A DNA stretch of 63,102 nucleotides, counting the filler, from Diploschistes diacapsis (lineage: Eukaryota), in assembly GCA_023645945.1 (NCBI GenBank). It is 5 parts of 5 records of this genome, joined end to end, with 100 filler letters (N's around TTAATTAATTAA, not from the genome) between each part and the next. Parts side by side here need not be neighbours in the genome. Positions count along the whole stretch, not along the records: positions 47,177 to 55,093 come from JALAIB010001223.1; 4 more parts are not named here. One strand, 5' to 3'. The notes below the pieces were generated by a model, which was not told the origin of the DNA, did not search any database, and was given only the letters and a program-made list of their open reading frames with translations. Below are positions 8,808 to 62,176 of this stretch, piece by piece (the stretch's first letter is position 1; each line of letters starts with the position of its first letter). The position numbers were made by a program, and so were the translations under genes.

Positions 8808-9666
8808 AGTTTTCGGACATTAACAAACTATCAATGCCAGACCAACGAGCTCGATAGCAGCTGAGCGAGTAATAAAATTAAGAATTGCAGAATAAGTAAT
8901 CCAGATATTCATTCTCTAGCAAACCTATATATTCGGTATTGCGTGTTAGGGTATTCTGGGAGCTCGTCGTCATAGACGCACAAGCAACTACAAACCATGT
9001 CTGCTGATTTCGCACGCCTCCTTCTTCCTTTACCGACAAGGATATGGAAGATCATAGCAGCAACAGCGACTATTACTGAAGGATGTCTGTTATCAGTACT
9101 GGCAGGCGAAGAAAGAACCTGGTTGGCCTTCAGTGTCTAGAGTCACTCAATTGTCAACAGACTCGTTACTATGGGGCAGAGTGTACACTGCTGGGGACTT
9201 CCTTCCCACCGCTGATGCACCTTGTGGGCACGTTTAAAGGTGGATAGATATGTAGCTTCCGGCACCCTGGGAAAATCTCAGTAGAGAAAGGAGAATCTAT
9301 GATTCGGCTTGCCTCGTACGATATTGTACCTTGTAAAGTTGCATGTGTGTGTGTGTGTGTGTTTGTTTGTTTGTTCTGCCGAGTTCTGAATGACATCATG
9401 TTGAGCCTTCTTGTTTACTCATTTCTTCCCATATGTATCCAACACCCGATAATGCACGAGACCGAAGCAACGTAGACCTAAAACACCTATTAATTTTTGA
9501 GGCGAGATGTTCTGATAGGTAGGTAGGTAGCGTGTTTCTCTGAAGTGTTTGAATATTCTACCCTTTTCGTGGTAATGCTTTGCCGGTCTGCCTATGCTTC
9601 ACCAAGGCATCCCCCAAATTTCATATAAATTCAACAACAGAGATACCTTGCATTGCTTCTATGTGC

Positions 9667-11004: not shown

Positions 11005-11541
11005 GTTGGCTAAAAAGTCTAGGAATGAGAGTGTACGAGGTACTCAAGAATGTACCAAAGTATAGCTATATATCTCGGGGAAGAGTCTGTGGTCCTCAGC
11101 TCAGAGGAGGGGAGCGAGATATTTATACCTCGAGCTCTCAGCAGGCATGACTGGAGTATCCCCCTTCGGAACCAGTTCACGTCTCATTGTCCGATAACAC
11201 CAATTTGGAACCTAGTAGAGGCTCCTGCCATTGCAACACAATACATATATCTGCCGTCTTCTTGAGTAATCTAGGGGTTGATCTGATGCTTATTTTATGG
11301 CAGTGTTAAGGAGTGCTCCACCGAGACTTGGCACACGCTGCTTAACCAATGAGAGTGAGCGGAATCCGAGCTACCCAATCACAGTCGATGTTCGCTGCTT
11401 ACACGTTCGAACGACCTCAGCTTCCTTCACTTTGGCGTGCATGTACCTAGTCGGTATGTTTTTCTCGCACCTTATATGAAATCAAAACTCCTTAGTATCC
11501 CATTACCATGGCATCCTTTTACTTAAGTGTATCCTACTTCC

Positions 11542-13301
11542 ATGGATGTGGATCGTCAATCGCGGAAAACTCCTCACAGGACGAAAGCTAAGGTGAAGTC
11601 TGGCTGCTGTACATGCAAGTGAGAGAATTCGGAGCTATGCTTCCCTCTTGGATTGATAGCGTACTTACCGTTCATAGAATTCGAAAAGTTAAGTGTGACG
11701 AAGGTCGCCCTTCATGCCAGCGCTGCATATCTACAGGTCGAACCTGCGATGGCTATGGAATATGGGGCGGAGGGGGAAACGCCCTTAACCATCGTTCAAC
11801 TAATGCAAGAAACGGTGTAAAAGACAGTGGCACCCCATGCTGCCCTATGTCGGTCAGCAATCTCTCTACTGTTGTGGTTAGCGCCAAGGAAAAGAGCTAT
11901 CTTGAGTGGTTCAAATGTCGGACTGCCGTGAAACTACCTGGAATCTTCGTTTCGACCTTTTGGGATACACTAGTGTTTCAAGCAACTGTGGACGAGCCCG
12001 CCGTGTTGCATGCAGTGCTGGCCTTGAGCGCCGTTCACAAGAACGAGATCCTTCACGGCAATCGGGTTAGAGGCCAAGAAAGCCTCCTAGATGCACAAGA
12101 AAAGTTCATGTTATATCACTACAGCAAAGCTATCAACTGCCTCCAGCCTCATTTCTCGGCAAAGAACAGTGCCTCTGTTCGTGTGGCTCTTGTCACCTGC
12201 GTAGTCTTCGTTTGCCTAGAACTTCTCCGCGGCCATTACCAGACAGCTCAAGCTCACCTCCGGAACGGCGTCGAGATTCTCAGAGAAATTCGGGCTTGCC
12301 CCAACTCCGGAGACAATCAACTTCTTGCTCTGCAGTTCTCTCACGCGCCTGTGGATGACTGGATCGCCGATGCGCTGTCTAGCTTGTTTACAGGGGTGGC
12401 CCTTTTCAATCCGGCTGACCAGAATACTTACTTGTGCTTACATGCCGTTGAACCTGAGCTTCTGGGCACGAAGTTCGAAAGCATTAATCAAGCAAAGCAA
12501 CATCTAGATCATTTACTGAATGAAGGCTTTGTCCTAAGTAATCAATATCGCAAGCAAGGGAATATGCAAAGTTCTTCCAACCTAATGAGCCGTCAGCGGC
12601 ACATTCGAGCAAAGCTTTCGTCCTGGCTCCTGGTACATAATGCATCCAAGGCAAGTCTTCTAGCCCAACTGCCAGTTCAAATGGGGTTTGCCCACCAGCT
12701 GCTGCGAAACTACCACACCATGGCCAGTATCATGGTAGACACCTCTCCCACTCCAACGTGTGAAGCAAGGTTCGACCCACATGCCGAAGATTTCGTTAGC
12801 ATCATAGACCGCTCCATAGGTCTCTGGAAAATTATCTACAACAGCAAAGTCACCCAGACGATATACGGCCACCCTCCGGAAGAGGCAAACGGCATCATCG
12901 AGATGGGTTGGATTCCCCCGCTCTACTACGTCGCACTCAAGTGCCGCGTGCATCGAGTAAGACTTCACGCCATTCGACTCCTCGAGGCATCTCCACATCG
13001 GGAGGGAATCTGGGTTGCGACCATTGTGGCCGCCGTTGCGCGAAAGGTAATGCAGATGGAAGAGGGGCATTTCTATGAGGGTCTGTCCCTGGAGGACGAC
13101 TTCCCCATCTGCAGCTCTCCTAAGGAGTCGCATCTGCTGCTGCCTGCGTTGCCTGAGCAGCGCAGGATTCAGGAGGTACAGTTAGTGCTGCCAGATGATC
13201 CAGTCGGGAAGGTCCTGTTGCGGTATAGGCAGAGGAATGAAGCTGGCTTGTGGGAAGTCTACGAAAGAGAATATGATGTGCGGTGTCGATGTTGGAGATA
13301 G
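11542..13301 (+). CDS. Zn2Cys6 fungal transcription factor; intron 11619-11677
   Basis: Spliced GCCTCKIRKVKCDEGRPSCQRCISTGRTC binuclear cluster, followed by a fungal TF middle region (HAVLALSAVH). Confidence 0.92.
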
Positions 13302-13412
13302 GAATCTGGGTATTGAGCTAACCTACTGACGACCACACAGAACGACAATGTGCATCTTGTATTGCTAGCTGGGCTACCTTTGCTGGAGTGATACAGAATA
13401 ATAGAACCTTGT

Positions 13413-14845
13413 TCACAATTCTGTCATCCAAGTAGGCACAAAGACTGGTGCCAGCTCGAGCTCCTTCATCATCTCCTTCCATCTTCGGCCCTCAACACCA
13501 GGCCGTTCGGCAAGATGGAGCTGCTCAAGCCACGTACGGATAGCCTTGTAGTCCCTCTTCGCGCGCTTCTCGCACCACCATATATCCTCGAAGCGACACA
13601 TGAGCCCGAGCCAGTACCCGATCAGCCACAATGCCTTCTCGTCTTTGTCGCGCACCAACTCGCGAAGCTCTGTGTCCACCTTCCCCAAGAACTGCAGGTT
13701 CTGAAACACGTTGAACCGGACAGGCGCGAGATTCCGCAGTTGCACTAGAATCAGGAGTGGTAAGCGGAATATGTTCTTGGGGTTCATGCTAGAAATTATC
13801 CCTTGGCGGTTTTGGGAGATGTCGACAGCGCCCGCGGACCCAGTTGCTTCGTCGTAACGAGTGCGGCCAGCGTTGTCCAGCTCGAAAACCTCCCTCCACG
13901 TGGCGGGTACCTCCTCGAGATCTTGACCTTCTCGCATTAATGTCCAACTCTCTTTATTGGAGCCAAGGAAAATCAGGCTTAGGAAGTGCAGCGTTTGGGG
14001 AAGGTAAGTGGCCATCGACTTGAGCAGAGGCCTGAGGCCCGCCTGCAGCGACAGCCAGCCTAACAAGTCCTCGTCCAGGCTGATAATCGAGGACGTCCTC
14101 GGATCAGGTTCGTCGTCACCCCTACTCACAGTCTCCGAGCTCGGTAGCGCGAAGGCGATGATGTTTAGCAGCACGGCGCTGAGCAGCAAGGCGTCTATGC
14201 CGGACTGGCCCAGGTCCTTCTGGGGTGTGCATAGAGCTTTTCGATATTGCTCAAGCGCGAATGATTGCTGAAAATGGTCAGCGATTCGATGCTGCAAGAC
14301 TCCTGGCGAGGCGTGCCGGAGATGGCACGCCGTCATAGCTAGCATGGTGTTGCGGACCAGCGGGTCGGATTTAGAGAGCGAAATGATCTTGTCACTGCGA
14401 GGCATGTGGAAGATTTCAGTCCAGTATCTCTGACAGTGCTGCATGAGATGGGTGCTGGACGTCCCATTTTTTGCGCTGGGCGAATAAAAGGGCACCAAGG
14501 TCACGGAATTGAGAACTGAGAAACTCGCAGTGTTACTCATATGCACCTCTGCCTTCGTTCGGCTCGATTCTGTGCCATAGTTGTCAGACTGGTCAAAACC
14601 ACACTGCCAACTATTCCTTCGACACCTCAGGCAAACTGGCCTCGTCTCATCACACTACAATTGTTAGCCTCTCTGGCCTTCATCTCAGAACTCCTTCGGA
14701 GCTACAGACAAACCTTGACTCTCTTCGCTTTGCATGTTAGGCATCCAGTCTTTGTCTTTTTGTGCACCTTGCGCTTCGTGTAGTATCGAGCTCTCAAGTC
14801 AGAGTCATTGAGCGAAATGACTCGAAAACCGGTCTCGGAATTCAT
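13413..14845 (-). CDS. Zn2Cys6 fungal transcription factor (Upc2-like architecture); one intron at about 14713-14655
   Basis: Spliced HKKTKTGCLTCKAKRVKCDETRPVCLRCRRNSWQC continues in frame into ORF 13413-14546. Confidence 0.9.
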
Positions 14846-15766
14846 GCCCAGGACCTTGGCGTTGACTTCTTCATTGCTTCCACTGCAGGTCTAGGTCCCT
14901 TTGGCCGAAAAGAGTAAACGAGCGTGAGTGATTTCACGGTTCCGGATGGAAGTTGCGGGGACTTAAGGATTGTTGTAACAAGCCCCTGATCGTGTATAGA
15001 TGGTCTGGTCTCTATTGATGGCGTTCGGAGCTTACAATATTGCAGAGAACTTTTGGCTGAGCACTGCCCAATCAAAAGCGCAAAATACGACGATCCCTGC
15101 CGTGCTGAGCATCTTTGCTCGTTTATCTCTTTCGGACTAGCGTGGCGATCTCTACCACCCACAGTACAATGGTAACATTGTATACTACTACAAGGTCTCT
15201 CCGCGATGTTAGATGCACTTTTACCACGCCCATTGGCGCTGACCCCGTCCCGAGAAACTCAACATGGTCATGGGTCTGGGATAATCTGAGAATGTCCGAT
15301 GCCTCAGCCGTGGAGCACGCATCACGCCCTAAGTCCTCCGAGCAATGTCAATTATCAAGGACCACCTCAAGCTTATGGTCAAGTGCTAACGTCCAAGGTC
15401 CAGAATCAGTTGCCTAATCCTCTATTATTGGCTTCCTCGTTTTGGGATTGTGAGGATGCATGGCTTCGGCACAACAGGCAAAGCATGCTCTCCCACAGTG
15501 ACCCCAAGTATGATACTAAATCTGCTGTCTTAATTATCAGTGGTTTGCTTATCTTTAGACGGGGATGATCGGAATGCTAAAGTCTTTGAGTCCGCGAGAA
15601 GAGCGAGTGTAGTGCTAAATGAAATTAGCAGAAGGTTCATAACATAAAAAGCCCATGGTATCGATTTTCACCTGTTCTACTTCTGCTCTTAACTAGAGAA
15701 AGAGTATCATCGTGAACCCGCATAGCAAATACCATTTCGCCCGGCAACCAAGCAATACAATCCAGC

Positions 15767-16875
15767 ATGTCTTTCCTTGCAGCTTTCATCAACCGCCAGT
15801 TCATCTACGTACCGCCCGTCCCAACGGCATCCTTTACGGGCAAGACTGTCATAGTTACGGGCAGCAACGTGGGCCTAGGTCTGGAAGCCTGTCGTTGGAT
15901 CGTTCGTCTTGGAGCGTCTCGAGTCATACTTGCTTGCCGAAACATCGAAAAGGGAAAGGCTGCCGCAAAGGACGTCCAAGCAACCACATCGTGCCTGCCG
16001 AAAACTCTTGACGTATGGCACCTCGACATGAGCTCGTACGCCTCCGTTAAGACTTTCTCCGACCGTGCCAAGGCAGAGCTGCCGCGTCTGGACGTGCTCA
16101 TCGCGAACGCTGGCGTATACAAATCAAAGTTCGAGATGACCGAGGACAATGAGGAGACAATCACCACTAATGTGGTTTCACTCGCCCTGCTCGGCTTTCT
16201 CCTCTACCCTAAACTCCGCGAGACGGCCGCGCGATTCAACATCCAGACCCACTTCACCGTAACCGCGTCGGAGCTCTACGAGGTCGCTAAGTTCAAAGAA
16301 CGCCAAGCCCCGCCGGGCCAGATCTTCGCGACTCTCAACGACAAATCCCAAGCCAACATGAGCGACCGCTACAACGTCTCGAAGCTGCTCGAAATCTTCA
16401 TGATCAAGCAAATGGCCGTCCTTTCCCCCCTGAGCTCCAACAACGTCATCATCAACTGCGTGGCTCCCGGGTAAGCCCCAGCTCCCTCTTCTCTCCCCTT
16501 CTTCCTCTTTCCCAAAGATCCCTCCGTCCACATGCCCTCAATAATCTCCAAATCCAAACCGCTAACCCCTTCCTCTCTCCTCCCTCCAGCTTCTGCCACA
16601 GCAATCTCGGGAATGAAACGAATAACAACCGCGCCGTCCGCGTCGCCAAGAACATCCTCTGCCGCCCGACGGAGATGGGCGCGCGCACGCTAGTCCACGG
16701 CGCCAGCGTCGGCCCAGAGTCGCACGGCCAGTACGTGCCGGACTGCAAGATCACACCGACGAAGGGCCTCTGCAAGGGCCGCGAGGGGGCGGAGCTGCAG
16801 ACGAGGGTGTGGCGGGAGTTGAGGGCCAAGCTAGAAGGGATTCAACCGGGTGTGACGGATTTGGATTTGTCGTGA
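15767..16875 (+). CDS. Short-chain dehydrogenase/reductase (retinol-DH/WWOX-like); intron 16471-16589
   Basis: TGSNVGLG, NAG, YNVSK catalytic motif, spliced VAPGFCHS. Confidence 0.93.
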
Positions 16876-29674: not shown

Positions 29675-30979
29675 TATTTTTATGATTGATTCCGGCAAGC
29701 ACTAGCCCAGAAAGGGTTAAGCGCCCAGCCGATCCCTCTCAACCTGAAGTTGGCTGTGTTTTGACTATTCCAGATTTGGTTTATAGTTAATGTGGGAGCT
29801 ATAGAAGTGGGGGCATGCAAATTACAAAATCTTACCACGTTTGCGAGGGTGGCCGTTCGTAAAGGCGTTATCTTACCGAGGTAGAGCTCGCCTTATAGTC
29901 CAGGATGAATTGCACGTAAGTTGGCGTTATGCGAAGCGCTGTTCGAGTTTGAAGGAACGGGTGTAGTGGGGATGGAAGATATCAAACATTATCCGCAAGA
30001 GAGTAGTAGTTGCTTCTCATGCCCAAGAAACACAGCGTAAGAGACTAAAACAGTATGAAAGAGAGAAGCCCGTCACCCCCTGGGTATCAAATCCTTTAGC
30101 AGCTAACTTGCAAGTATGGAGAGATATGACAGAGTTAGCGGTAGAGGGTCTTGAATGGGCCTGTAAAGGAAGTAAATTCCTGCGAGTATTTCGGACACTG
30201 AAAGGGCAGGTCCAACGCTACCCAATTGCCGTGAATCTTTAAACCCGCAACCGACAGCCTTACAATCGCTCGACCTAAGCCCTCGCTCCCAGACTCCCTG
30301 CCCGCCATGCCTCACGCCGAAGCCACCAGCTTCCGGCCCGACCTCACCAAAGCGGAAGCCTATGGCCAAGTTCTATTGGAGATGCGCTCCCTGATGGAGG
30401 GACAGCGGAACTGGGTGCGGCACAAACATGCTCCATCCTGCCACAAGTAGACACAAGCACTGATGAGATGGGCGCAGGTGTGGTGAGAAAGATCTCCCTA
30501 TTGCGGTCTCAAAAGCTCCTGGCTCCGTTACATGTATCCTGGTAGGCGATGTCGATGATGGTTTGTGCTCCAAATACCCTGTTACGCCACTCTATGCGCA
30601 AGCAAGAGAGCTCGAAAGATGCTTCAGATCAATCGCGAAACGATCCCCGAGATACTCGAATCTTTCCTCGAATTCTGAAGATTATTTCCGCGATTGATCC
30701 GAAGCAATCTCTCAAAGCTCTTCGGCGGGGGCGTAAGGTAACCAAAAAACAAACAGTAGCATCGCCTGCCAAGCCCATTTACGTTCAAGGATTCAGCATG
30801 AAAAAAATACACCACGCTTCCATCCCTTTCAAAAAAAAAACCCCCCGCAGTTCGCTCTAACCACCTCCCCCCACCCAGCAACCTCGCAAACGCCGCCTCC
30901 CTCCTCTGGCACGCCTACAAATCCCTCGCTTTCCCCTCGAGCGAGGTAAACTGGGCGGGTACCACTTCCCCTCTTCCCC

Positions 30980-31079
30980 NNNNNNNNNNNNNNNNNNNNN
31001 NNNNNNNNNNNNNNNNNNNNNNNTTAATTAATTAANNNNNNNNNNNNNNNNNNNNNNNNNNNNNNNNNNNNNNNNNNNN
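30980..31079. other. Assembly gap with artificial TTAATTAATTAA linker
   Basis: N-run around a six-frame stop spacer; identical at four places. Confidence 0.97.
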
Positions 31080-31661: not shown

Positions 31662-34600
31662 ATGTCCAAACTTCCTCTTACCAACGATGACTATGTTGTG
31701 GGCTGGATCTGCGCGCTGGAGGTGGAGTTGGCGGCGGCCATGCTGATTTTGGACGAAGAGCATTCAGACTTACCGTGTGCAGATAACGACTCTAATGCGT
31801 ATTTGCTTGGACGTGTCGGTCAACATAATGTTGTCGTTGCCTGTCTCCCAGCAGGTACAGTGGGGACAAGCGTTGCAGCCACCGTTGCCAATAACCTACT
31901 CCGAAGCTTTCCAAAGGTCCGATTTGGCTTGATGGTAGGCGTTGGAAGTGGAGTGCCAAGCAATCCTAGTTCGAACGCGCGGGATGACCTTCATCTCGGG
32001 GATGTCGTCGTGAGCAATCCAGTTGGCGAACATGGTCAGACATTGTTCATTAAGTAAACCGTGACGAAGCTAATTCACAAATTAAGGTGGCGTTTTGCAA
32101 TTCAATTTCGGCAAAACCATCAAGGAGGGCAAATTTGTTCATACTGGTTCCTTGAACAAGCCGCCCACAGTGGTTCGAACTGCCGTAACAAAACTTCGAG
32201 CACGACAGAGGATTAAGCGCAATCTGATTCAATCACGCATCGATTGTATCATGAAAACCAACCCAGGCATGAAAACAGAGTTTGGACACCCTGGCCCCGG
32301 CAATGATCACCTGTTTATGACCGATTACGAGCACGAAGATGGCCAAAGTGACTGTGAGCTGTGCGATGTTGGAAAGCTTGTGCATCGGCAGCCTCGAGCT
32401 CGCCCTGATCCGGTCATCCATTACGGGCTGATTGGCTCCGCTGACAATTTGATCGGGCATGCCGCAACCCGAGAGAAGCTTCGACAGGAGAAGGGCATAT
32501 TGTGTTTTGAGATGGAAGCTGCTGGCTTGATGGACAACTTCCCTTGTCTTGTGGTTCGTGGCATCTGCGACTATTCAGACAGCCACATGAACAAGCAATG
32601 GCAGCCATATGCCGCGTTGACAGCAGCCGCGTACGCAGTGGAGGTTCTGGCTTGCGTACCAAGTGGTGATGGGCTGAGGATTCCCAAAGCCATTGACGTT
32701 GTGAAGGATAGTTAGTGTTGCAAAATCCTCTGATTTGCCAGCCTCGAAGTTGACATTCAAAGTTGCTAAAAATATTTATACAGCTGTGGTAGAAACGCAT
32801 AATGCTGCACAAGGAGAGGGTCTAGCCGACCATGGGAGAAGAGTCATCCAGTGGCTCAGCGCGCCAGACCCTTCCACCAATCTCCATGCCGCTACGGCAA
32901 AACACCATGCAGACACAGGTTCATGGCTTCTGGAGCATCAGGCGTTCCTCGAGTGGCAAGCTGGTGAGAGGAATTTCTTATGGCTGTATGGAACACCCGG
33001 ATGCGGTAAGACTGTTTCGAGCTCGACTATCATTAATTACTTGCGTTTAAAGCAGAACGATGCTGGCACTCCTGTTCTATTTTTCTTTTTTGACTTTAAC
33101 AATAAGGACAAGCAGTCGCTGGACAGCCTACTACGTTCGTTACTTGCACAACTCTATTCAAACTTTGAATACTCTCGAGAGGATATAAACTTGTTGTATC
33201 AAGAATATGGCAAAAGAGGGTCAATGGCATCAACTGACGATCTATCTTCCACTTTCATGACTGTGCTTCGGAAGGCCCCTACGCATTATTTAGTCCTTGA
33301 TGCTATGGACGAGAGCACTACGAGACGAGATCTGCTCAACTGGATGAAGGCAACACGCGCGTCCGTAGTGGACCACCTGTTAATTGTCGCTACCAGCCGG
33401 AGTGAGCATGACCTGGAAACTGGAATCAGAAACTTCGTGGACGAAGAGAACTTTATACCTCTTCAACAAGCGTCAATGGATCCTGACATTTAAACCTGTA
33501 CGCAAGCTATTCTGAACGTCGCACAAGGGGGCTTTAAGCGATGGCATTTGCAGCCTACTGTCTGGAAGGAGATCGAAGTCGAAATGACACGCAAAGCTGC
33601 TGGAATGTGAGACGCATCCATCCGTACAAACAAGTAAAGCTCGACTGACTGATTTTCGCAGGTTTAAATGGGTCGCTTGTCAACTCGACGTGCTGAAGGA
33701 GTGTCTGAATCTCCCGCAATTGCGCAGTGCGCTCAAAGACGTGCCAGCAACGTTAGATGGAACATATGATCGTATCCTGGCTAGTATACCGGCGCAACAT
33801 AAGTCACTAGCTATAAGAATTTTACAGCTTCTCACCTATTCCCGTAGGCCACCGATGCTGGAGGAGATCATCGATGCCATTGCCGTGTTTCCGGACGAAA
33901 AACCTTGCTTTGATTCTAGCTGGCGTATGCCCGATCCTAGTGAAATTACGAGGTTATGTTCGAGCCCCGTGTCCAAGGTGGACAACCAGAAGGTACTGAA
34001 AGCTACTCTAACATACCCATATCACTCAGATCGTTGCTGCTCAATCCTTCAGTTGGCCCACTTCTCTGTCAAAGAGTATCTTGTCTCTGATCGTGTCGAA
34101 GAGAGACCCCGATCAAGACTGGTTGAAAACAACGCTCATAAGGAATTGACTCAAGTTTGCACAGCATACCTCACCCACGCATTTGAAGTAAACACCAGGT
34201 GGCAGGAAGTTTCACTCGGTAAGGGTGTTGGGCTACCTCGGATATCGCTTCTATGCTGACTTGGAATTGAAGTTGACTCTACGATGGACCCATGCATTCC
34301 CTATGCAGCAAATATAGGACTTAATTTCTTTGAATATAGTGCAGCGTGCTGGATGAGTCACGCCGATGAGGCAGTATGTTTCGAAAATGTCGGAGAGCCG
34401 AGTCGACGAAATATGCTACGGCAGGCAGGCAGGCGACACCTCTACGATATCTGCGTTCTCATGCTAAAAATTTTCTCGTCTGACTTCTCTCGGGTTTGGG
34501 AGGGATTGTGCTCAGTACGTCTGGCTGGCTAAGTCCTGAACCAGCCTTGCATTCTACATCCATAAGGGGCTTCGGTGGCATTAATTAAGCGTGGTTTCTG

Positions 34601-35496
34601 ACGTCAATGCAACAGCACGTGATGGCCAGGTGGATTTGATAATCAGAACACCAAGTTCAAGATTAAAGCTTTTTCTGGACAATGGTGCGGCATTCTATAT
34701 GCAGAAGTATTACCTGGACATGGCGTTGGAAAGCGCCGAAGGGAGATTCTCGAAGAATGTTATCCAGATCCTTCAGGATTATGGCACAAATCCTAGAGTA
34801 AGCTATGAGACGAACATGAAGGTTCTTCAGTCTCATGGCCTAAGTATCGAAAATGTTACTAAACACCTTTATGTTCAAGCCGCCGCCGAAAAAGGCCAGG
34901 AAAACTTAATTCGGGCCCTTCTGAATCACGGCGCTGATGTTAATGTGATTGTGCGACACTTTTACAGTGCTTTACAAACTGTCACAGCAAAAGGCCTCGA
35001 AAACATAGTTCAGCTCCTTGTGGATTATGGCGCTGATGCTAACGCAGCACCAAGTGCTAGCACTGCTTTAATAATCGCGTTCTCGTGTAGGTACGAAAGC
35101 ATCGTACGGATGCTTCTGGAACATGGTGCTGCTGCTAATGCGATAAATGTTTCAGGGGAGACTCCTCTGATACGCGCATGACTGTTGGGCCATGCAAGGA
35201 TTATACGAATACTGCTAGAACATGGTCCTGACGTTGCTGTCAGAAGTCAAGAGTATGGTACTGCTATGGAAGCTGCTTCCAAAGAAGGCCGCAAGGATAT
35301 TGTGCAGATACTCCAAGCTGATGGTGCTAGCTTGGATACTGACGGAGAAGGCAGTGGTTCAGCTAGGGACTGTGATAGTGAAGTGAATAGCTCATGCGAG
35401 AATCCTGACAACGAAGGATGTAAACGGTTCTGTGGCTTTGACGCTGAAGAGCCAGAACCCTCTTCAAATGGGAAAAAAAGGAAAAGACTAAATTAG
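31662..35496 (+). pseudogene. Fungal NLR-like gene, PNP_UDP phosphorylase - NACHT - ankyrin repeats; disrupted
   Basis: VGWICALEVE, GLMVGVGSGVP, CFEMEAAG, RGICDYSDSH; Walker A GTPGCGKT, Walker B VLDAMDE, LAHFSVKEYL; ankyrin LLNHGADVN; in-frame stops at 33491 and 35179, broken frame around 34250-34590. Confidence 0.85.
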
Positions 35497-37002: not shown

Positions 37003-39029
37003 TGGGAGCAACGAGATGTTTTGGGAGGAGGGGCAGCTGCGGGAGTTTGTGGGAAGTGGTCGGTGTTTTGGTTAGGATGTGTGTTGTGAGATTTGGGGAT
37101 GGATCATGGGTGTTGAGACTATGGGCTCGAGATTGGGGATGTACGACTCTGGGACTTGGGTTTCTTCTTTTGTAAGGTGCTTGCTGGTACCCGGCTGTAT
37201 ACGAAGATTTTTTATCAAGATCCCGAGGAAATAGGGTAGAAGACAGCTTTACTATAAATTACTAGTTTGGTAGACTGTATTCAGCCATTCAGCGCCCTCA
37301 ACTACCTCAGATCTTGCTTCATCTTATCTTATCTTATCATATCTCATCACACTTGAACCTCCGCCCTATTCCCATCTTACTCTTTCCCTTCCTTTCCCCC
37401 TCTTCGCCATTTACACTTCTTACACGAGCATAATCTTTCCCACAGCCTTGATTTGGCTCTGCAGTATGGCTCTACTCTGCTCTACCGTTGAAAGCCACCG
37501 AAGCTCGAGCTCGCAGCTGAAGCACATGAAGCGCCGCGCCTCATTTCTCTGGTCCATACTGCTTGAGCTTGAGATGTTGGGTGCCAGCTGTTTTCTGGAC
37601 CCAGTTGCTGCCGGCGCAAGGAGCTGGGGTGAAGGACGTGTGCCTTCGCATATTACCACCCTTGGGAGCCGATGAAGGGACTTGAGCCGCTGGGCTTGAG
37701 GACCGCGGAGAGAAAAGAATAGAGAAGAGAGAAGACTTCAATGGTGTGTGTACTATCATACTTTCGCCATTATCATCAACGCTACTGCTGCTGCCACCGG
37801 CGGGAGGACTGGCGAGGGAAAAGCGAAGCATGTATCACCCCCTGAGAAGGAAACAATGTGGGGGAGAACTGAGAGTTTCTTTTCTGGGTGTGCTGTTGTG
37901 CTGTTTGATTTTATCATTCGGAATTGTATGCATTATACTATGAGAGCTGCAGAGGTAGCAGTGTTTCTCTCAGGCCGACGATCTGCTGTTCGATGTGTTT
38001 TTGAATACTATTATGAAACAAGAGGCGATAAGATTGCGGCAGCTACAGAGTCTCTAGTTCCTACCCTTCACGTACAACGATGAGGATGAGAATGGCAGTG
38101 GACGATAGTCAGTCGCAGCCGGCGGTGGTTGGATGTCAAGTGCCAGATCCCTTGGGGCTCGAGCGTTTCAAGCATTGCAAGCATCACCAGCAGGGTCCGA
38201 CCCTTTCTTTGGGTTCTTGCCATCGTGGCCCTTGCATCCAGAAACCGGGCTCACGTACGCGTGCATGTACGAGCTACATCATTTCGGTGCACCACTTGAG
38301 ATAGAAGTACCAGTGTCACATATGAGTTATTCTGATCACACTTTCTCTTCCCTCATGCTTCTTTCTCAATCTGATCAACCTTGTGCCTACCCCTCACCCC
38401 CCTCTTCGCCAAAATTTTCACCCGCAGTCGCTATTTCCATTTCAACAACAACACCCACCACCCTCATCAACCTCACGTGCCTCACCAACCCCCCAACCCC
38501 CCCTGTTCCAGTCCACACACACACACACACCGCACAGCAACACAGCAACACCCCCCCACTCCATCAAACGCCGCTCTGAGAGAGAGTTTGTCCAGCGCCA
38601 GGCCCAGCACCAGCACCACGAAGCACGAGCACGAGCACGAGCAGCAGCCATCTCCCTCCCGCGACGCAAATCCGCGCAGAGGCACGCACGGGGGGGGCTT
38701 CAATCAATCAAGCCAGGCCAGGCCAGCAGCGCCGGAGCGCGCTGGTATACTATGCGCGGAATACGCGCACAGAACATGCCCCCTGGGCGGGAACGCCCAG
38801 GGACAAAAGGGCCGAGGTTCTGGAACGGGTCTGAGAAGGTAGGGCAGGGGCGTCGAAGCGATGATGGGGGGGATTTTTTTTTAAAGGAGAGAGAGAGAGA
38901 GGTGTGGACGGCATACCCATGTGAAATGTGAGGGGTGCGAAAACCCGACGGCTGGAGCAGGGCAGGGGGGCTTTTCCGGGGCGCGCTCTGTAGGGGCTGG
39001 AGATGCGGGATAGGTGCAGGAGGGAAGGG

Positions 39030-39129
39030 NNNNNNNNNNNNNNNNNNNNNNNNNNNNNNNNNNNNNNNNNNNNTTAATTAATTAANNNNNNNNNNNNNNN
39101 NNNNNNNNNNNNNNNNNNNNNNNNNNNNN
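39030..39129. other. Assembly gap with artificial linker
   Basis: N-TTAATTAATTAA-N. Confidence 0.97.
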
Positions 39130-46748: not shown

Positions 46749-47076
46749 CTAATATCCCAGAGCCCCAAGACATGCACGAACTCCCCAAAGTCCCCGAAAG
46801 TGCAGCAACGCTCGCGCGATACCGTGCGTCGTGAAAAGGGGCCAGCCTGGCCCCGCGCTCCCGAATCTTGGAGGGGGACTCGTCTCGGGCTTGGGCTTAG
46901 GTGCGGGGGCTGCTTCCGACACCCCCGCTCCGGCTCCAACGGGCGAGCCGAGGTTCCGCATGGCCGCTCGCCGCGGCTGCTGTTCGCGGATGGCGGCGAG
47001 GACGGCGCGCGCGATGGCGGCGTGGCCGGCGGGCGTGGGGTGGAAGACGCGCAGCCAGCGGGGTGGGGGCCAAACA
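46749..47076 (-). CDS. 3' fragment of an SGNH/GDSL hydrolase, truncated by the gap
   Basis: Minus frame reads WLRVFHPTPAGHAAIARAVLAAI (SGNH block V) with high GC3; stop at 46749. Confidence 0.6.
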
Positions 47077-47176
47077 NNNNNNNNNNNNNNNNNNNNNNNN
47101 NNNNNNNNNNNNNNNNNNNNTTAATTAATTAANNNNNNNNNNNNNNNNNNNNNNNNNNNNNNNNNNNNNNNNNNNN
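47077..47176. other. Assembly gap with artificial linker
   Basis: N-TTAATTAATTAA-N. Confidence 0.97.
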
Positions 47177-47985: not shown

Positions 47986-49350
47986 TCACTTCGTCTTGAA
48001 GAAGTCGCTCATCTTCTTCATGCCCGTGACGTCGACCTTCTTCAGGTCCCTCACGCCCCGGCTCTCGTTCACTTTCTTCCTCCTCTCCTCTTCTTCCTTC
48101 TTGCGCTTCTTCTCCGCTCTGCTCTCTGCGTCTTCGTCTTCTTCGTACGAGCGCTTGAAGCTGTCGCCCGATGCTTGGAACGAGCTGCGCGTAGCGGCTT
48201 CGGCGCGGAGGGCGGCGAGGGCGGCAAGGTGCTTTGTGAGCGGTGCGAAGCCAATGACCTTTGATGTCTCTGGGTCGGCGAGGAGGGCTTCGAGGATAGA
48301 TGCTAGGTGCTTCGGAACGTAGGAGGAGAAGAGGTAAGAAAGCGAGGTGCGGAGACGGAGAAGGTGCTTGATCTCCTCTGTAGGCTGCAGGGCAGAAGCT
48401 GAGACCGAGGACTGAGAATTGTTGGAAATCGGGACAGTGATGGCCGTGTAATCTGTTGTGGCGGAGGACTGTGACTCGCCTCCTGAAGCGTTGGAGCCCG
48501 CAGATTGTGAATCCGTTGATTCGGTAACAGAGAGTTCCGCGCCGCCGAACCCTGCAATTGAACCCTCTTTCCTGAGTCTGATTGTCTCTTCCTCCACCAG
48601 TATACTAGCCATGGGCACGTCCAGCGCGCGTTTCACGAACCGTTCCTCCATGCTGGGCGGCAGGCCTCCGTCCGACATCCGCTCGGCTTTCCGCATCAAT
48701 TCTTGTAACAGCTTGACGCTACTCAAACGATACATCTTCTCGTCTCCAGCTTCCACGGCGTCGCAAACGGCCATAATCCGGCCCTCGATCATATCTCTGG
48801 TCGCTTGGTGCCTCGTTACATATTCCAGATGCTTCGAGAGCTCGAAGACGTTCTCGAGCAAATCGTCCGCACTCTGGAAGAGGACCTTTCCCCCTGATCT
48901 GGAACCGGTCTCTTTGGGCCTCGGGCTCAACGCAGGCAGCACCAGAAACAACGAGTCGATCGCAGTGACGGTGAAGAACGCCGCGGTTTGGCAGACGTAG
49001 CCTTCCCTGGGCGGCGACGACTGTGCGTCGGCCGTCTCGTTGTTTTCGTCTCCAGCGCTCTCGAGCCCGTCGATGCTTTGTTCTGGAGCTAGCAGCAAGC
49101 TCCGCGGCGCAGACGATGGTGCTGCTATGCGCTTGATCTCGTAGAGGCCGGTGCTCGGACAATGGTAGTATCGTGTGGGTACCAGCGAGCGGGGGTGGGC
49201 TAATGTCACGATTCGAGCTTCTTTGCTGAGTGTTTTGGGCAGGATGAAGAACTTCGGAGGGTTTTGGTCCGGGATGGGGAGGGGTTTCGGTGGGGACTCG
49301 ATGGGCGGCGCGGTCGTTGTGGCCTTTGCGGGCTTCGAGCGCGTTCTCAT
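47986..49350 (-). CDS. RNH202: Ribonuclease H2 subunit B
   Basis: FILP..L.HPR, LYEI, D.LFL.LP, CD.VEAGDEKMYRL; C-terminal PIP-like GMKKMSDFF. Confidence 0.9.
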   Translation of the reverse strand: MRTRSKPAKATTTAPPIESPPKPLPIPDQNPPKFFILPKTLSKEARIVTLAHPRSLVPTRYYHCPSTGLYEIKRIAAPSSAPRSLLLAPEQSIDGLESAGDENNETADAQSSPPREGYVCQTAAFFTVTAIDSLFLVLPALSPRPKETGSRSGGKVLFQSADDLLENVFELSKHLEYVTRHQATRDMIEGRIMAVCDAVEAGDEKMYRLSSVKLLQELMRKAERMSDGGLPPSMEERFVKRALDVPMASILVEEETIRLRKEGSIAGFGGAELSVTESTDSQSAGSNASGGESQSSATTDYTAITVPISNNSQSSVSASALQPTEEIKHLLRLRTSLSYLFSSYVPKHLASILEALLADPETSKVIGFAPLTKHLAALAALRAEAATRSSFQASGDSFKRSYEEDEDAESRAEKKRKKEEEERRKKVNESRGVRDLKKVDVTGMKKMSDFFKTK

Positions 49351-49466
49351 GGTGTGGGGAGTCGGGCAGATTGAATTACCGCGAGGTTGAAAGGCTTCTT
49401 TGAGATTCTGGATATGATCGATCCTTGATTGCAATTCCAAGTTCCTAGTTAAGCATCCTTTGGGCG

Positions 49467-49515
49467 ACGCGTTAAAGCGCGTTTAACTCAACTTGTACGG
49501 GGTTTAGGTCGCGTC
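49467..49515. promoter_or_regulatory. MCB-like (ACGCGT/CGCG) cluster upstream of RNH202
   Basis: ACGCGT at 49467-49472 plus two more CGCG cores within 50 bp, about 120-165 bp upstream of the ATG. Confidence 0.5.
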
Positions 49516-50945: not shown

Positions 50946-52500
50946 TATGGACGTTCCTCCTGTGCCGTTGCGGTTCACTATAAAAACTCAACTAAGTGTT
51001 TTCTCCAGACGTTCAGTAAAGTTACCGTTTGGCCCACCCAGCCTCCCGGTCATCGGTAATCTACTCCAGATTCTGAGGACACGCCCAGACCCGAAGCGGG
51101 AAGCAGCTTATGTAGGTCCACCCCTATTCTATATGACGATCACACTCACAAACCCTGTGGTGCACTTGCTGTCTTTGAAAGGATATGGCGAAATGGCGAC
51201 GTTGAAGATGGGCGAGAGGACCTGGTTGCTGCTGAACGGTGACCGCGTCGTTCATGAAATCGTCTTCAAGCGCACAAACGTAACACATGAGCGCTTAGAT
51301 CCTCCATTTGCGAGCGGGCTCATGAGTTAAGGGACGGGAACGATACTTCGTCCAACGGCAGGATGGGCCGGTGTTAGAAAACTCATGCATCATATGCTGA
51401 GCGGCATAGCGTTAAAAGAGTATGGCAGGCTGCAGGATTCAAAAAGTATTCGTCTCTTGACAAATATCTTCAATGCCCAAGCGCTTGGTACTCGCACCAC
51501 CGTGGATACCCATACTCGATAATCCATCGTATCGTTGCACGCGAATCAGTTCAGCCTACGAGGCAGCAGCGTGATGAGTTCCCGCATATGACCAAGGAAT
51601 TTATTCGCAGCATCAACGCTAGTCTACTCGACTTCTATCCATCCATGGCCAAGTTTCTCAACTTCATGCAGCCCGGCAGGTAGTCCGTGATCATCAACCA
51701 TATCGAGATCCTGGTGGACGTCGGTCAAAGAGCATTTGGCCTGAGATCAAGAACCCCAATTTTTCATAATCGATATACTCATGCACGACCCTAAATACTC
51801 CAAAGACGAGAAAGAGGCCATGTATCTTGTGACGGCCATCATTGCTGGTGGACGGGACAAGAATGACCATGACATTCCAAAGGCGAGAGAAGAACTGGAC
51901 AACGTCTGCGGGGCCGATGCTGAGCGTCTCCCTCGCCTTGATGATATACGACATCTGCCTTATATTTCCGCTACGATCAAAGAGCGTCTCCGCTGGCGCC
52001 CTGTCCTACCTTTGATACCCCAGCATCGTCTCACCGAGGATCTCGAATTCGAGGGCCGCTATTTCCCTGCCGGACCAGACTTTGTCATCAACTCGCTAGC
52101 AGTCAATGCTGAATGCGAAGAGCTCGCCATCCTCAAGCCGGAAAGATGGATGGACGAGCGAGTCTTCAACGTTGTGAGTGGGCTTTGGCAGTTCGGTGGC
52201 GGACGACGTGTTTGCGTTGGCTACGCTATGGCACATCAGGAGCTCTTCTTGGCAACTCGCGCGCTTAATGTACTGTTTTGATTGTGCAGTTGTCAGTCCA
52301 ACAGGCCCTGAAAACCTTAGACCGCGTTAATTTGTGATCTTGCTGTAGAACGAGCCTTTTGAAGTCGTTTACTAAATCATTCTGCGTCCGGTGAACCGTT
52401 TCCGGTCAAGGTTACAGTCCGGAACCAAGCTCACACGGACTTGATCAGTCGAGTAGCGCGTGGCATGGAGAGTTGGCAACAACCAATGTGTTATCTTCGC
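50946..52500 (+). pseudogene. Cytochrome P450 pseudogene
   Basis: GPPSLPVIGNL, KERLRWRP, PERW, FGGGRRVCVG; stop at 51328, frameshifts, and apparent deletion after IIAGG in the I-helix; boundaries approximate. Confidence 0.82.
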
Positions 52501-52882
52501 CATCCTTAATATTATGTAGCAGGTTTAGGGGGCGCGAATCAAGAACAGAGCTAGTTGTGCCACGGGAAGGCATGCTGGTAAGAATGATATGGAGGTAGTG
52601 TTATGGTCTTCGATAGCAAAGCTCTTGCGTACTCTGCGGGGGCTCTCGGGGTTTACTAGCCTTGTTGGGACATGGCAAGTCGGGCTGAGATCTGATGTCT
52701 TCAGCTTCACAGACCTCTTCCTCCCCCAACTCAAACCCCGTTAATCTCGATACCTCTGGGAATCTGCCATTCTGAGCCCATATTCTGATCGAACAGCAAT
52801 CTACATTAGACTCTTCAGCTCGATACCACCAGTTTATAACATGGGATGGCCATTCTCATTCTTGTGCGGGAGCAGGACCCGT

Positions 52883-53372
52883 ATGACAGACAATCGCGAG
52901 CCGGACAAGAATGGTACGTTTTTAACCACTGCACCTATGATGATACATCTTAGCATAATTGTTAATATTCTCAGGGAACATCAACTGTAAGAACTGCAGT
53001 AATTGCACGGATTGTGTAGACTGTACCAAGTATGTTCTATGCTCATAGAAGAGACCACCTCGGATCAGTGCTGATCCACAACATAGTTGCTCGAATTGTG
53101 ACAACTGTACAGATTGTTTGAAGTGAGTGGGCCACACATGCCACAAGCTTATTCTCGCAAATGCTTTTCACGCGCTGATAACTGCTTGTCCTAGTTGTTC
53201 CAATTGCGACGACTGTGACCGCTGCGTAAAGTTCGTATTACACGTGGCGAACTCTGGGGCCTTGAGTTGACTGACATTCTACTCTAGCTGCAGCAATTGC
53301 ATTGCTTGTGATGATTGCTTAAACTATTCCAACGGAGACCACGTGAAAAAGGGCAGGAACGGAAGTGGTTGA
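52883..53372 (+). CDS. Small Cys-rich (Cys-X-Asn/Asp)17 repeat protein, metallothionein-like or beta-solenoid; exons 52883-52913, 52975-53029, 53087-53122, 53195-53230, 53288-53372
   Basis: Four GT-AG introns with branch-like motifs give an uninterrupted 80-aa ORF: MTDNREPDKNGNINCKNCSNCTDCVDCTNCSNCDNCTDCLNCSNCDDCDRCVNCSNCIACDDCLNYSNGDHVKKGRNGSG. Confidence 0.88.
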
Positions 53373-53823
53373 TGAGAGTCCAGTCCTGCTCATTCCATGC
53401 AGTGACCCTTATTAAGCGAGTATCATTGGAACGATGTCGGTATAGAATGAACGTGATGTTCAAGAATGTATCCTAGATTTCAAGCAGCGCCGTAAAACAA
53501 ACCGACTGATCGTCAATAAGATCTGCGCGTTTTACCAAAGGAAAAGCTGGCGAAGCACCTGCCATGAATGAGATGTGAAGAAAAATCCTGACCCACTCGA
53601 TCTGGTAAGAAGACTGGAGTTGTACGAGGTACAGAGTCTTCATCAAGTTGAAGTGGTGGTTACGGTGGTTGAGGGACTCATGCATTTGGTAACTTCATGG
53701 GTAGATTCCTATTCTACAGCCCCCGAATATGATCTAAACCTTAGCACGTTGCATCATATTCTAAGTCCTGCCCAACAAATCATTTGTGGCGTGCTAGCAT
53801 TTTTCGACTATGCTATCTATGTA

Positions 53824-55093
53824 CAGTACTAGTCCAAAAGTAATGGTCCCTCGGTTAAATCGGTGCAAATAAACAATAAATGCCTACTATTATTTCTACA
53901 ATAATGCCACCATATCGTCGTTTGAAGCTCTAGGAACGCTCTGAGCTTATAGGCGCATATAGATCAGGTGTTATCCTAAAAAATATAATCAATAAGCTAA
54001 ATATTCCTTATTCTACAGCCAAAAAGATAATAATAAAGGTTTTAAAACGTAATGAAGATTAAGATGATTTAAAGCGTTTCGGAAGACCTCGAACAACGTT
54101 CGAAAATTAAAAAAATAAACTTTATCGAACGATTAAACGCCATTTAAAATCTAAATAATCTAAATTACTCGATATCTCGTCTATCAGCAAAAATATAATG
54201 CGCCGAAAATTCCGCGATATCGACTTCTCTTTCAAAAAATATAAAATGCGGTGGAAGCCATATTTAAAGTCTAAAGATACGGAAAAACGTCTGAAATATT
54301 CCCGAATATACCGAATTTAACGCGTCGAGGATTTTATTAATATTTAATTTATCGACGAATGCTCTATAATAATAGGAAATAATGAAATACGAAAATGAAT
54401 ATAAAGATATATAAAAAAACAATGGTTTCCCGATTATCTAGCAAACACGACTAGAAATAAAGAAAATATTATGTTTTAGGCTGGTATGAAAGCCGATAAA
54501 CGCGTTATATAATATTTTTTCGAAAATTATTATATAAATAGACGAAGTGCTACCGCCGAAGCCTATTGTGTTTTATTAAGAAATATTTTGCCCTAAATTT
54601 ACGAACCTGGGTAAGGTTTTTTGTAGGATAATACTCCTATATACACTGCAAACGCTGTTAAAACGCTTTTAGAAAATCTCGGCGTCTAGGTTCTCGATTA
54701 TTCATTATATAGTCTAGATTTGAACGTTATAGAACATCTTTGGTTTAAATTAAAAGAGGAGGTATTTCGGCTTTATCCAGAGCTTAAAACAATGCGTGGG
54801 AGTAAGGATAATAAGAAACAGGCTTTAAAAGCTGCTATTATCGAGGCATTTGGTCAAATTACGGTAGATAGGGAGTGGGATTTACCTGCTTGATTAATCT
54901 ACTCGATGCCTACGCGAATTCAGGCTGTATACGACGCGTAGGGGTGGCAAATAAAGTATTAATAGATACTACGAATAAAGGGCATCAAAATGATCTAAAA
55001 AGCGCATTTGTAGGACATTATTTGGGTGCGCATCGCATCTCCAAAGTTGGTGATGTCTACTGCAATTTAGGTAGGGACCATTACTTTTGGCAC
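53824..55093 (+). mobile_element. Tc1/mariner DNA transposon, RIP-inactivated
   Basis: TA|CAGT start; 18-bp IR 53834-53851 / 55073-55090; transposase relics FIDEC, F.*DNTPIHT, YSLDLNVIEHLW; AT-rich with many TAA/TAG stops. Confidence 0.9.
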
Positions 55094-55193
55094 NNNNNNN
55101 NNNNNNNNNNNNNNNNNNNNNNNNNNNNNNNNNNNNNTTAATTAATTAANNNNNNNNNNNNNNNNNNNNNNNNNNNNNNNNNNNNNNNNNNNN
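55094..55193. other. Assembly gap with artificial linker
   Basis: N-TTAATTAATTAA-N. Confidence 0.97.
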
Positions 55194-60292: not shown

Positions 60293-62176
60293 ATGAGTCC
60301 AGCGAAGGCCACGACAAGAAAAGAGCGTCCTGTGACCAGGTCTTCTGGGACGAAGCGGCTCATTGAGCTCGTGGACGGAAAAGCTCAAGTCCAGCAAAAG
60401 CAAGGATACTCGAAGCAAGCCAAACGAACTGCATCCCGTGATAAATCCAGAAAGGAAGCAACTGGCAGAGACAAAGGCCCGCAAGAGAAAGGTGCACAGC
60501 TAAGTCGTGCAAAGGGGGCAAGCAAGAATCAGGGTAGACAAAGTGTACAGCAGAATCGTGCAGCTGGGAAGCGTACTGGGAACGCTAGAGCTACTGTTAG
60601 TCCGAGACAAAAATGGTCAAAAGGTAGGTCAAAGCACGGAACCACCATCCCAGGCAACAGCGTTTAATGAGTTCGACAGTTGATGAAAACAAGAAAAGAA
60701 GGCCACCAGGGGTCGGGTCAGTGATTCAGGTATATATTCTACCCATTAGTGCTCTGATATGATAGAAATTAACGTCTGAAGGCTTCCAGGATTTGGAATT
60801 GGGCACAAGAAGTTAGGCCTGGCGGACCGCCACTTTTGCCAGAACGGCGGCGATCAGAAACACCAGGAATTCGCAGTTCTTCGTTAGAGCTAGAGAGTCA
60901 ACCTTATTCGTCCGAATCCGAATCCTCCTTGATCATGACTGAAAAAGGCAGTAGGAAGACATTTACGGGCTTGCGTCGGGCCCTTCAAGATCGGCAAATC
61001 CTGTTGGACCCCTCAAACTCAAAGGATAAGCGGCTAGAGGAACTACAGGGCAAATTGAAGGCAAAGTTGAAACCTCAATCCAAGGAGAGTACAGTCCAGC
61101 TTCTGGAACGTCTAAAGTCAGGCATTGTTAGCGCGATGAATTCAACAAGCAATCTTATGCTTTTGGATGCGCTGCTTATGCAACTGGATCAGTTCAAGTC
61201 CGAAATCAGGTATCCATTTTCACATCCAAAATACTTCAAGAGTCAGTTAAAGAAGTGCGCTTCAAGGTCTGAACATGTTCTTCAAAGGACTGTTATGATG
61301 AATTTGTTTCATACCTACTGGCTTCCGAAAATCTTCGAGTGGAATACCGAGGGGTTGTGGGAAGTCGATCCTGGCGCTCAGGTATTTTTGTCGTCTAAGG
61401 ACGAGACATTCACACGTCCCAAACCTGACTTATCGTTCGGGTTTGCGCAAGAGGCTTTCACCGACAAGCTCAACACTGCTGTAGCAGTTCCAGGTGACCT
61501 TGAAGTGGCGATTTCACCTGATGGTTATAGACAGCAAGTGTTTCCTTTCCTATTTGTTGAAGTTAAGAAAGGGGGTTGGGGTCTTGAGGAGGCCAAACTT
61601 GAAAATCTCCGAACTGCTGCCCGGGCGCTATATAACATTCACCGATGGTTTGAGCGGGCCAAACACTGCAACCTAGACCAGGATAAGGCCATTGAATTGA
61701 ACCAGTCTTTTCATGGTATTCGAGTTTTTACCTTCACATTCAATGCATCGGAGTTGGTCGTGCGAGTGCATCGAGCAGAAATTCTGAGGCCTGGCACGCT
61801 TGGATTTCCCGGCACACTCGCATATCACTTTGCCGACTTCTTTACTGTTGAACCAGGAGTGTACACTAGGGACCAGATATGCAATCTCTTCAACAATATT
61901 ATCAGTGATTACGCGGCCGAAGAGCTTTTCCCAATGCTACAAGCTGTTTACGAGGCAGTCCTTGACGGTGCTTTGAAAACCATAGTTGCTGCTGCTCCTA
62001 GTGCAGGCGTAGGAAAAAGTGGACCAGACCAGCAAGCGGGAAGATCCGACAATGGCGATGCTGATGAGGATAGACAAGAGTATGAAAAGAGTAGCGAGGG
62101 TGTTAATGACGAGGAACATGATGATTATCCAATGTCACCACAGCGTGGACACTTCTCCCAAGGATACCAGATGTGA
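60293..62176 (+). CDS. Hypothetical protein with PD-(D/E)XK-like nuclease motif and basic low-complexity N-terminus; 5' exon structure uncertain
   Basis: RPKPDLSFGF...VFPFLFVEVKK...AKLENL in a 446-aa ORF; upstream K/R-rich ORF 60293-60667 is a probable first exon. Confidence 0.72.

Follow-up and report, generated by a model that had tools for sequence, protein, structure and literature searches.

How can a gene be recognized if its coding frame nowhere stays open for more than 47 codons, and what would such a gene make? The question is raised by positions 52883..53372 (plus strand) of a 63,102-nucleotide (nt) stretch of DNA from the Diploschistes diacapsis assembly GCA_023645945.1, which is referred to at its full length as the window. 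The original prediction placed at this locus a five-exon gene for a protein with a cysteine at every third residue. As described below, the locus looks like a genuine five-exon gene of a filamentous ascomycete, absent from the annotation, and the function that appears most plausible for its product, judging from composition, known metallothioneins and CxxC sites, is a metallothionein-like one.

The model was obtained by splicing exons between the located start, donor, acceptor and stop signals; the coordinates of each intron run from the first base of the donor to the last base of the acceptor. Exon 1 (52883..52913) comprises the start codon and 10 hydrophilic codons and ends in phase 1. It is followed by a 61-nt intron (52914..52974) with a GTACGT donor and a CAG acceptor, and by exon 2 (52975..53029; 55 nt), which encodes five cysteines at period 3 and carries the first repeat unit at 52994-53029. 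The next two exons, 36 nt each (exon 3, 53087..53122; exon 4, 53195..53230), correspond to repeat units 2 and 3 and encode four cysteines apiece. Exon 5 (53288..53372; 85 nt) contributes repeat unit 4 (53288-53323), a 16-residue tail and the TGA stop codon. Introns 2 (53030..53086; 57 nt; GTATGT donor), 3 (53123..53194; 72 nt; GTGAGT donor) and 4 (53231..53287; 57 nt; GTTCGT donor) are all in phase 2 and all end in TAG. A branch-like CTGAY motif lies 13-17 nt 5' of the acceptor in three of the four introns, reading CTGAT in introns 2 and 3 and CTGAC in intron 4. The spliced coding sequence, 243 nt in length, specifies 80 amino acids (aa) followed by TGA. From the donors and YAG acceptors to the length of the product, these elements reproduce the original prediction exactly.

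The gene had also been said to be invisible in lists of open reading frames (ORFs). It is absent from them because the pieces of the exon frame are short, just 25-47 aa from stop to stop, and introns 2-4 each carry an in-frame stop; in intron 3, the donor itself makes an in-frame TGA. On the opposite strand, facing exons 2-3, a stretch of 81 codons is open (52922-53167, minus strand) and would read as a Gln/Leu/Val-rich peptide; it mirrors the TGY-NNN-AAY repeat of the plus strand.

The 5' end of the model was delimited by a phase scan covering up to 600 nt upstream. A single first-exon solution was obtained, with the donor at 52914 and the start at 52883 or at an in-frame ATG at 52841. The latter has an A at -3 and lies just 3' of a TATAA sequence at 52835; its use would extend exon 1 by the interval 52841..52882 and add 14 residues. 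Either ATG may be the start codon, giving a protein of 80 or 94 aa.

The most distinctive feature of the product is a series of 17 consecutive cysteines at period 3, occupying residues 15, 18 and so on to 63 of the 80-aa form. Their codons are mixed (9 TGT, 8 TGC), and 15 of the 17 cysteines are followed two positions later by Asn or Asp, the other two by Arg and Ala; the run of 17, the mixture of codons and the 15 of 17 had been put forward originally. The core of the protein resolves into four units of 12 residues that follow the pattern N-C-S-N-C-x-x-C-x-x-C-x. Exon 2 closes with unit 1, units 2 and 3 coincide exactly with exons 3 and 4, and unit 4 begins exon 5. All three introns between units are in phase 2 and split an Asn codon between AA and Y, with each of units 2-4 opening a new exon. 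Since the unit exons are symmetric (phase 2 at both ends), they can be duplicated in tandem without breaking the frame. The C-terminal tail opens like a fifth unit in which two of the expected cysteines are replaced by Tyr (TAT) and Gly, and its start resembles a decayed repeat unit.

The 80-aa form has a mass of 8.65 kDa, an isoelectric point of 4.3 and a grand average of hydropathy of -0.89. It contains 17 Cys (21%), 16 Asn and 12 Asp, and a single aromatic residue (one Tyr, no Phe or Trp); the cysteines form sixteen overlapping CxxC pairs. A hydropathy heuristic detected no signal peptide in either N-terminus, the best 9-residue Kyte-Doolittle mean being 1.12 (in the longer version), and no alternative first exon encoding a signal peptide was found within 600 nt upstream. 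The claim that the protein lacks such a signal was thus borne out by hydropathy alone, and the product is probably cytosolic.

Divergence among the repeats and a related copy

The period-3 cysteine pattern of the window is beyond chance. Counted over all six frames of the 63-kb sequence, there are four runs of four such cysteines, all in one frame and within 340 nt, compared to a mean of 0.095 and a maximum of 1 in 200 block shuffles. The repeats have been conserved at the level of the protein. The four repeat units are 53-69% identical in DNA sequence, and the third codon position is the least conserved between them (4-6 of 12, versus 7-11 of 12 at positions 1 and 2). A Nei-Gojobori comparison pooled over the six unit pairs (11 codons each, the pairs not being independent) yielded proportions of synonymous and nonsynonymous differences, pS and pN, of 1.01 and 0.30, respectively. 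The invariant serine is encoded by AGT, TCG, TCC and AGC in the four units, that is, by codons of two families (AGT/AGC and TCG/TCC) that one synonymous step cannot bridge; at the invariant cysteine positions, TGT and TGC are mixed across units. The introns that follow the units align with one another like shuffled sequence, within 1-2.5 standard deviations. Silent sites and introns have therefore been randomized while the Cys-Ser-Asn framework was held, indicating that the repeats are old and that selection acted on the translated product. No dinucleotide bias of the repeat-induced point mutation (RIP) type is present at the gene, in contrast to a transposon relic found nearby.

A profile search from the exon-containing ORF pieces returned one related sequence, P0005, as the sole candidate to pass among 41 of 84-2000 aa; no candidate was obtained among proteins of 13-83 aa. 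P0005 is an 89-aa ORF on a 1153-bp ENA contig. It is a prokaryote-style ORF call that runs, unspliced, from intron 2 through exons 3 and 4, with the intron between them, into intron 4 of a related copy, and its alignment to the window uses frame +1 first and frame +3 thereafter. The parts corresponding to exons 3 and 4 show no insertions or deletions (indels), and 2 of their 24 codons differ, as opposed to 11 of 52 in the intron parts, a contrast that is non-significant by a rough estimate. In exon 3, 10 of the 12 overlapping codons are unchanged; in exon 4, all 12 residues are the same. On the most economical reading, the two exon changes would be a synonymous TGT to TGC replacement and a Leu to Phe replacement at a variable position. 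Intron 3 of the copy contains an 18-nt insertion and undergoes a net shift of +1 nt. Because the indels in this intron shift the frame, the cysteine register continues from exon 3 to exon 4 only if intron 3 is spliced. Intron 2 is represented in the copy with substitutions. The alignment of the first five residues is ambiguous: they may reflect 12 nt inserted directly 3' of the GTATG that is conserved at the donor of intron 2, or an end of exon 2 that has diverged. Altogether, the comparison is consistent with a live gene, short of proof. The gene model itself appears well supported by the internal signature of selection and moderately supported by the related copy.

Candidate functions of the product

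A peculiarity of the protein is that no characterized family lays claim to it. Protein and family searches were made with exon-sized pieces or read-through ORFs. Screening four exon-containing pieces against Pfam and NCBIfam at E up to 10 gave matches at chance level, among them the insect antifreeze family PF02420, which reached at best 9.4 bits (cut-off 36.5; E 2.1) with the exon-2 piece, one of the four. A 17-position profile of the repeat, run against 1.84 billion representative proteins, produced one match (E 1.1e-4), a 93-aa protein of Aneurinibacillus that NCBI names a heterocycloanthracin/sonorensin family bacteriocin and that belongs to TIGR03601 at 3.9e-16. This precursor has 18 cysteines at period 3, repeated C-S-N-C, and mostly Asn, Arg or His before Cys. 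In HMMER, a hidden Markov model (HMM) of six members of its cluster aligned, through model positions 35-88, to residues 15-68 of the spliced product. The score was 39 bits, 33 of which were flagged as compositional bias, and model positions 1-34, the leader of the family, remained unaligned. TIGR03601 itself gave no match to the four pieces at E up to 10. The likeness to the bacterial Cys-Xaa-Xaa precursors, seen in sequence comparison, is thus one of pattern and not of family membership. It is nonetheless the closest known sequence pattern, and one that the original prediction missed.

Searching prokaryote genome contigs gave 81 pattern matches, none of which was confirmed, and the ESM Atlas returned no usable match to the exon-4 stretch. 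In JGI metagenome contigs there were 172 pattern matches, two of which passed tblastn (L001, 140-217; L002, 3001-3078) and were rejected as chance; we take both, from inspection by eye, to be a bacterial RecQ-type helicase with C-S-N-C-D-N-C in a Cys-rich, zinc-finger-like stretch. No eukaryotic protein with such a Cys-X-X repeat was found in open-access papers and preprints on repeats of the Cys-X-X type, on fungal Cys-rich repeats and on CXXC metallothioneins of fungi, nor was one present among the matches listed for the metallothionein literature of lichen mycobionts. A preprint on a cysteine-rich repeat and gene transfer (10.64898/2026.06.07.730663) was set aside, as its subject is another repeat, in Neocallimastix. 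By these tests the protein would seem to fall in none of the families examined, and the claim of novelty stands.

We favor the interpretation that the gene is live and that its product binds metal, and assign to this combination a probability of about 40%. The gene would have grown as a symmetric phase-2 exon, coding for one 12-residue unit, was duplicated in tandem, selection then keeping the Cys, Ser and Asn framework. The product would be a small, acidic, cytosolic polythiol whose thiols are expected to be in the reduced state, since no secretion signal was found. Positioned at i, i+3, each after Asn or Asp, the reduced thiols could form thiolate clusters that chelate metal ions of the soft or borderline kind (Cu(I), Zn, Cd). 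In that case the protein would serve as a metallothionein-like buffer or detoxifier, about four cysteines (two overlapping CxxC pairs) being added with every exon unit. Its mass, cysteine content and lone tyrosine all lie within the loose definition of metallothioneins (low mass, about 15-35% Cys, few aromatics).

Several observations weigh against this interpretation. Expression and the four splice junctions are predicted from sequence alone, and a search for RNA sequencing runs that cover 52600-53700 listed none. Database searches with exon pieces and read-through ORFs, the spliced 80-aa protein not having served as query, gave no annotated homologue. The product has none of the CxC, CC or CxCx3-5CxC motifs of fungal metallothioneins, its pairs being CxxC only, and Asn/Asp-rich spacers are unusual for characterized members of that group. 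An N-x-S sequon is conserved in every unit (8 sequons overall), which secretion would explain better. Upstream of the gene, the counts of copper- and zinc-responsive elements are unremarkable: zero for the Mac1 type, zero for ZRE and two for the Ace1 type (0.47 expected). The related copy may be paralogous and not orthologous, in addition to its ambiguous first residues and the non-significant contrast between its exons and introns. Finally, the gene sits between a decayed P450 gene and a dead transposon, a type of location where relics are common.

This last point leads to the best-surviving alternative, unlikely in our judgment, which is that the locus is a silent relic: once coding, now unexpressed or nonfunctional, and spared so far from disabling mutations. 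Past coding would account for the selection signature among the repeats, and the tail that resembles a decayed fifth repeat, together with the empty search for RNA runs and the failure to find an annotated homologue in two very large protein collections, would fit as well. So do the flanks. The upstream P450 gene (50881-52281, plus strand) is probably decaying. Its last ORF piece (51745-52278), representing the C-terminal third, matches Pfam p450 at 1.9e-23 and bears PERW-like and FGGGRRVCVG heme motifs; the two pieces before it have no Pfam match at E 0.01, and the gaps between pieces contain no canonical intron. Downstream of the five-exon gene lies a broken Tc1/mariner relic (53934-54890, plus strand; AT-rich to about 55090), in which stop-interrupted fragments match HTH_SB, HTH_Tnp_Tc3_2 and DDE_3 with E values of 2e-4 to 2e-3. 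The low-GC stretch, which begins about 500 nt downstream of the gene, is RIP-like (34% GC; TpA/ApT, 1.0; (CpA+TpG)/(ApC+GpT), 0.88). The original prediction had described the setting as a dead P450 and a RIP-affected transposon. The transposon is recovered weakly and with RIP-like composition, and the P450 fits a decayed gene of which Pfam recognizes the C-terminal third only. A relic, however, would have to have kept an intact frame, start and stop over 490 nt, along with all eight splice sites and three branch-like motifs, in local sequence without RIP-type bias. Moreover, exons 3 and 4 are free of indels in the related copy, whose introns carry three, though that comparison is too shallow to prove present-day constraint.

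Granting a live gene, the thiols could have a purpose other than metal buffering. CxxC is the motif of thiol-disulfide oxidoreductases and of many Fe-S sites, and with sixteen overlapping pairs the protein might alternate between dithiol and disulfide forms, or carry Fe-S clusters, and in this way counter the oxidative bursts of drying and rewetting. A Yap1/AP-1-type palindrome (TTACTAA/TTAGTAA) at 52369, some 470-510 nt 5' of the two possible starts, points in the same direction, with 2 strand hits versus 0.36 expected in shuffles. It is, however, a single weak occurrence. Pfam found no domain, be it a thioredoxin-like fold or another, surrounding the motifs in the four pieces, and nothing distinguishes a redox or Fe-S role from plain metal binding; we regard such a role as improbable.

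Very unlikely, too, is that the gene specifies the precursor of a ribosomally synthesized and post-translationally modified peptide (RiPP), a fungal counterpart of the heterocycloanthracin/sonorensin thiazole peptides with a short leader and an enzymatically processed cysteine core. The sole match of the repeat profile is indeed a TIGR03601 precursor with Asn mostly before Cys and with C-S-N-C in common, and the two proteins have the same layout (hydrophilic N-terminus, a run of 17-18 Cxx, short tail). Yet the match is confined to the core, is largely compositional and leaves out the leader that defines the family, for which 14 (or 28) N-terminal residues would be a short stretch in any case. 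Among the 79 of the window's 161 ORFs of at least 90 aa that were scanned with Pfam, there is no YcaO, cyclodehydratase, dehydrogenase partner, scaffold or other peptide-modifying domain; no azole-forming RiPP pathway is known from fungi. Having one repeat per exon suggests, furthermore, a eukaryotic origin and not transfer from bacteria. The chances that the Cys-Xaa-Xaa peptide is converted to thiazol(in)es, or modified otherwise at its cysteines, into a polyheterocyclic product, which would be a first in fungi, are slimmer still.

A further proposal holds that the protein folds into a beta-solenoid of 12 residues per turn, stapled by disulfides or metal, with Asn/Ser/Thr ladders that bind ice, mineral or carbohydrate. 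The 12-residue coils of insect antifreeze proteins, such as that of Tenebrio, have Cys at i and i+6, as does each unit here. The period of 12 residues equals one exon, Asn/Asp recur regularly, the N-x-S/T sequon is conserved per unit, exon 2 gives the weak antifreeze match in Pfam and freezing tolerance is relevant to a lichen fungus; but that match is far under threshold and came from one piece in four, four cysteines per coil is twice the antifreeze number and, because no signal peptide or upstream exon for one was found, oxidative folding is not expected, so that we give this proposal very little credence. In a variant of it, each exon-encoded coil may provide a Cys4 metal site. Thus, of the two parts of the original interpretation, the gene model gained from the evolutionary signals within the gene and from one related sequence, whereas the antifreeze or beta-helix part was weakened by the lack of a secretion signal and by the sub-threshold family match.

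Lichen fungi are accumulators of metals, and they withstand drying and freezing. For such organisms, a dedicated polythiol would be a testable candidate. If expressed, the protein would stand for a Cys-rich family with a uniform i, i+3 lattice of thiols, of which no eukaryotic example was found in the literature searched, and the gene would offer a clean case of growth by exon duplication, one repeat per exon. Short, multi-intron genes for Cys repeats escape gene callers, and related genomes may hold many more.

Host and genomic setting

The affiliation of the host was examined with the intronless gene for RNase H2 subunit B (47989-49482, minus strand) as marker. The best named relatives of its product are from Thelotrema lepadinum (57% identity), Gomphillus americanus (48%) and Xylographa species (about 47%); other proteins in ENA reach up to 64%. 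On this single marker, the host looks like a lecanoromycete of the Ostropomycetidae, a lichen-forming group.

The ORFs scanned in the window represent genes ordinary for a fungus and include P450s, aldo-keto reductases, a Zn2Cys6 factor, GH72, ISN1, a mitochondrial carrier and an NPHP3_N-ankyrin gene resembling those for NOD-like receptors (NLRs). The region 700-16500 is a possible metabolic gene cluster. Its members are a P450 (704-2442, minus strand), a cytochrome b5/FAD/NAD reductase fusion (2934-4343), two aldo-keto reductases, a Zn2Cys6 regulator (11592-13298) and a short-chain dehydrogenase (15716-16471). In the NLR-like gene (32705-35178, plus strand), an NPHP3_N NTPase domain (4e-39) is followed by ankyrin repeats, an architecture typical of fungal non-self recognition genes. 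An ORF of 467 codons at 60773-62173 (plus strand) matches DUF7924 (1e-12) and lies beside Lys/Arg-rich ORFs in a stretch of lower GC content; it may represent a further element, mobile or associated with repeats. About every 8.05 kb (30979-31079, 39029-39129, 47076-47176 and 55093-55193), the window contains paired runs of 45 N with 11 bases between them, which look like masking or scaffolding and not biology.

Comparison with known systems

Three known systems share traits with the predicted protein. The insect antifreeze repeat PF02420 is likewise a 12-residue, Cys-containing unit with Ser, Thr or Asn between the cysteines. It has half as many cysteines per unit and comes from an unrelated taxon, and the secretion signal that was sought here was not found.

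The heterocycloanthracin/sonorensin precursors are alike in their unbroken Cys-Xaa-Xaa run (18 cysteines versus 17), in C-S-N-C, in Asn before Cys and in a length of about 90 aa. They differ in being bacterial and intronless, in having a conserved leader of ~35 residues and in their Phe/Arg-rich spacers, those of the protein described here being Asp-rich. According to the report defining TIGR03601 (Haft 2009, PMC2674419), the family is characterized by this leader, by the Cys-Xaa-Xaa core and by co-occurring genes for a cyclodehydratase, a dehydrogenase and a scaffold protein; the enzymes turn Cys into thiazoles, Cys-Xaa-Xaa being the functional unit. The same report states that the precursor genes are routinely missed by gene callers and that, in Bacillus, a distance of 1.27 Mb can separate a precursor from its enzymes (PMC2674419).

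The modular metallothioneins of fungi, TmMT of Tremella mesenterica and CnMT1/2 of Cryptococcus, present the most extensive parallels. According to the report on TmMT, the gene consists of amplified Cys units distributed over 10 exons of 63-105 bp, and metallothionein genes are said to be often mis-annotated owing to their short exons and Cys repetition (PMC4755600). These proteins resemble the one proposed here in being Cys-rich and of small to medium size, in having no signal peptide, in their tandem Cys units and in the many short exons of their genes. Their unit is a 7-Cys one of the CxCx3CSCPPGxCxCAxCP type, related to that of Neurospora, whereas here four cysteines keep strictly to i, i+3, nearly all of them preceded by Asn/Asp. 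No similarity in sequence was detected between the two. By analogy of architecture, then, the modular fungal metallothioneins would be the nearest eukaryotic precedent for a protein built from one cysteine-bearing unit per exon.

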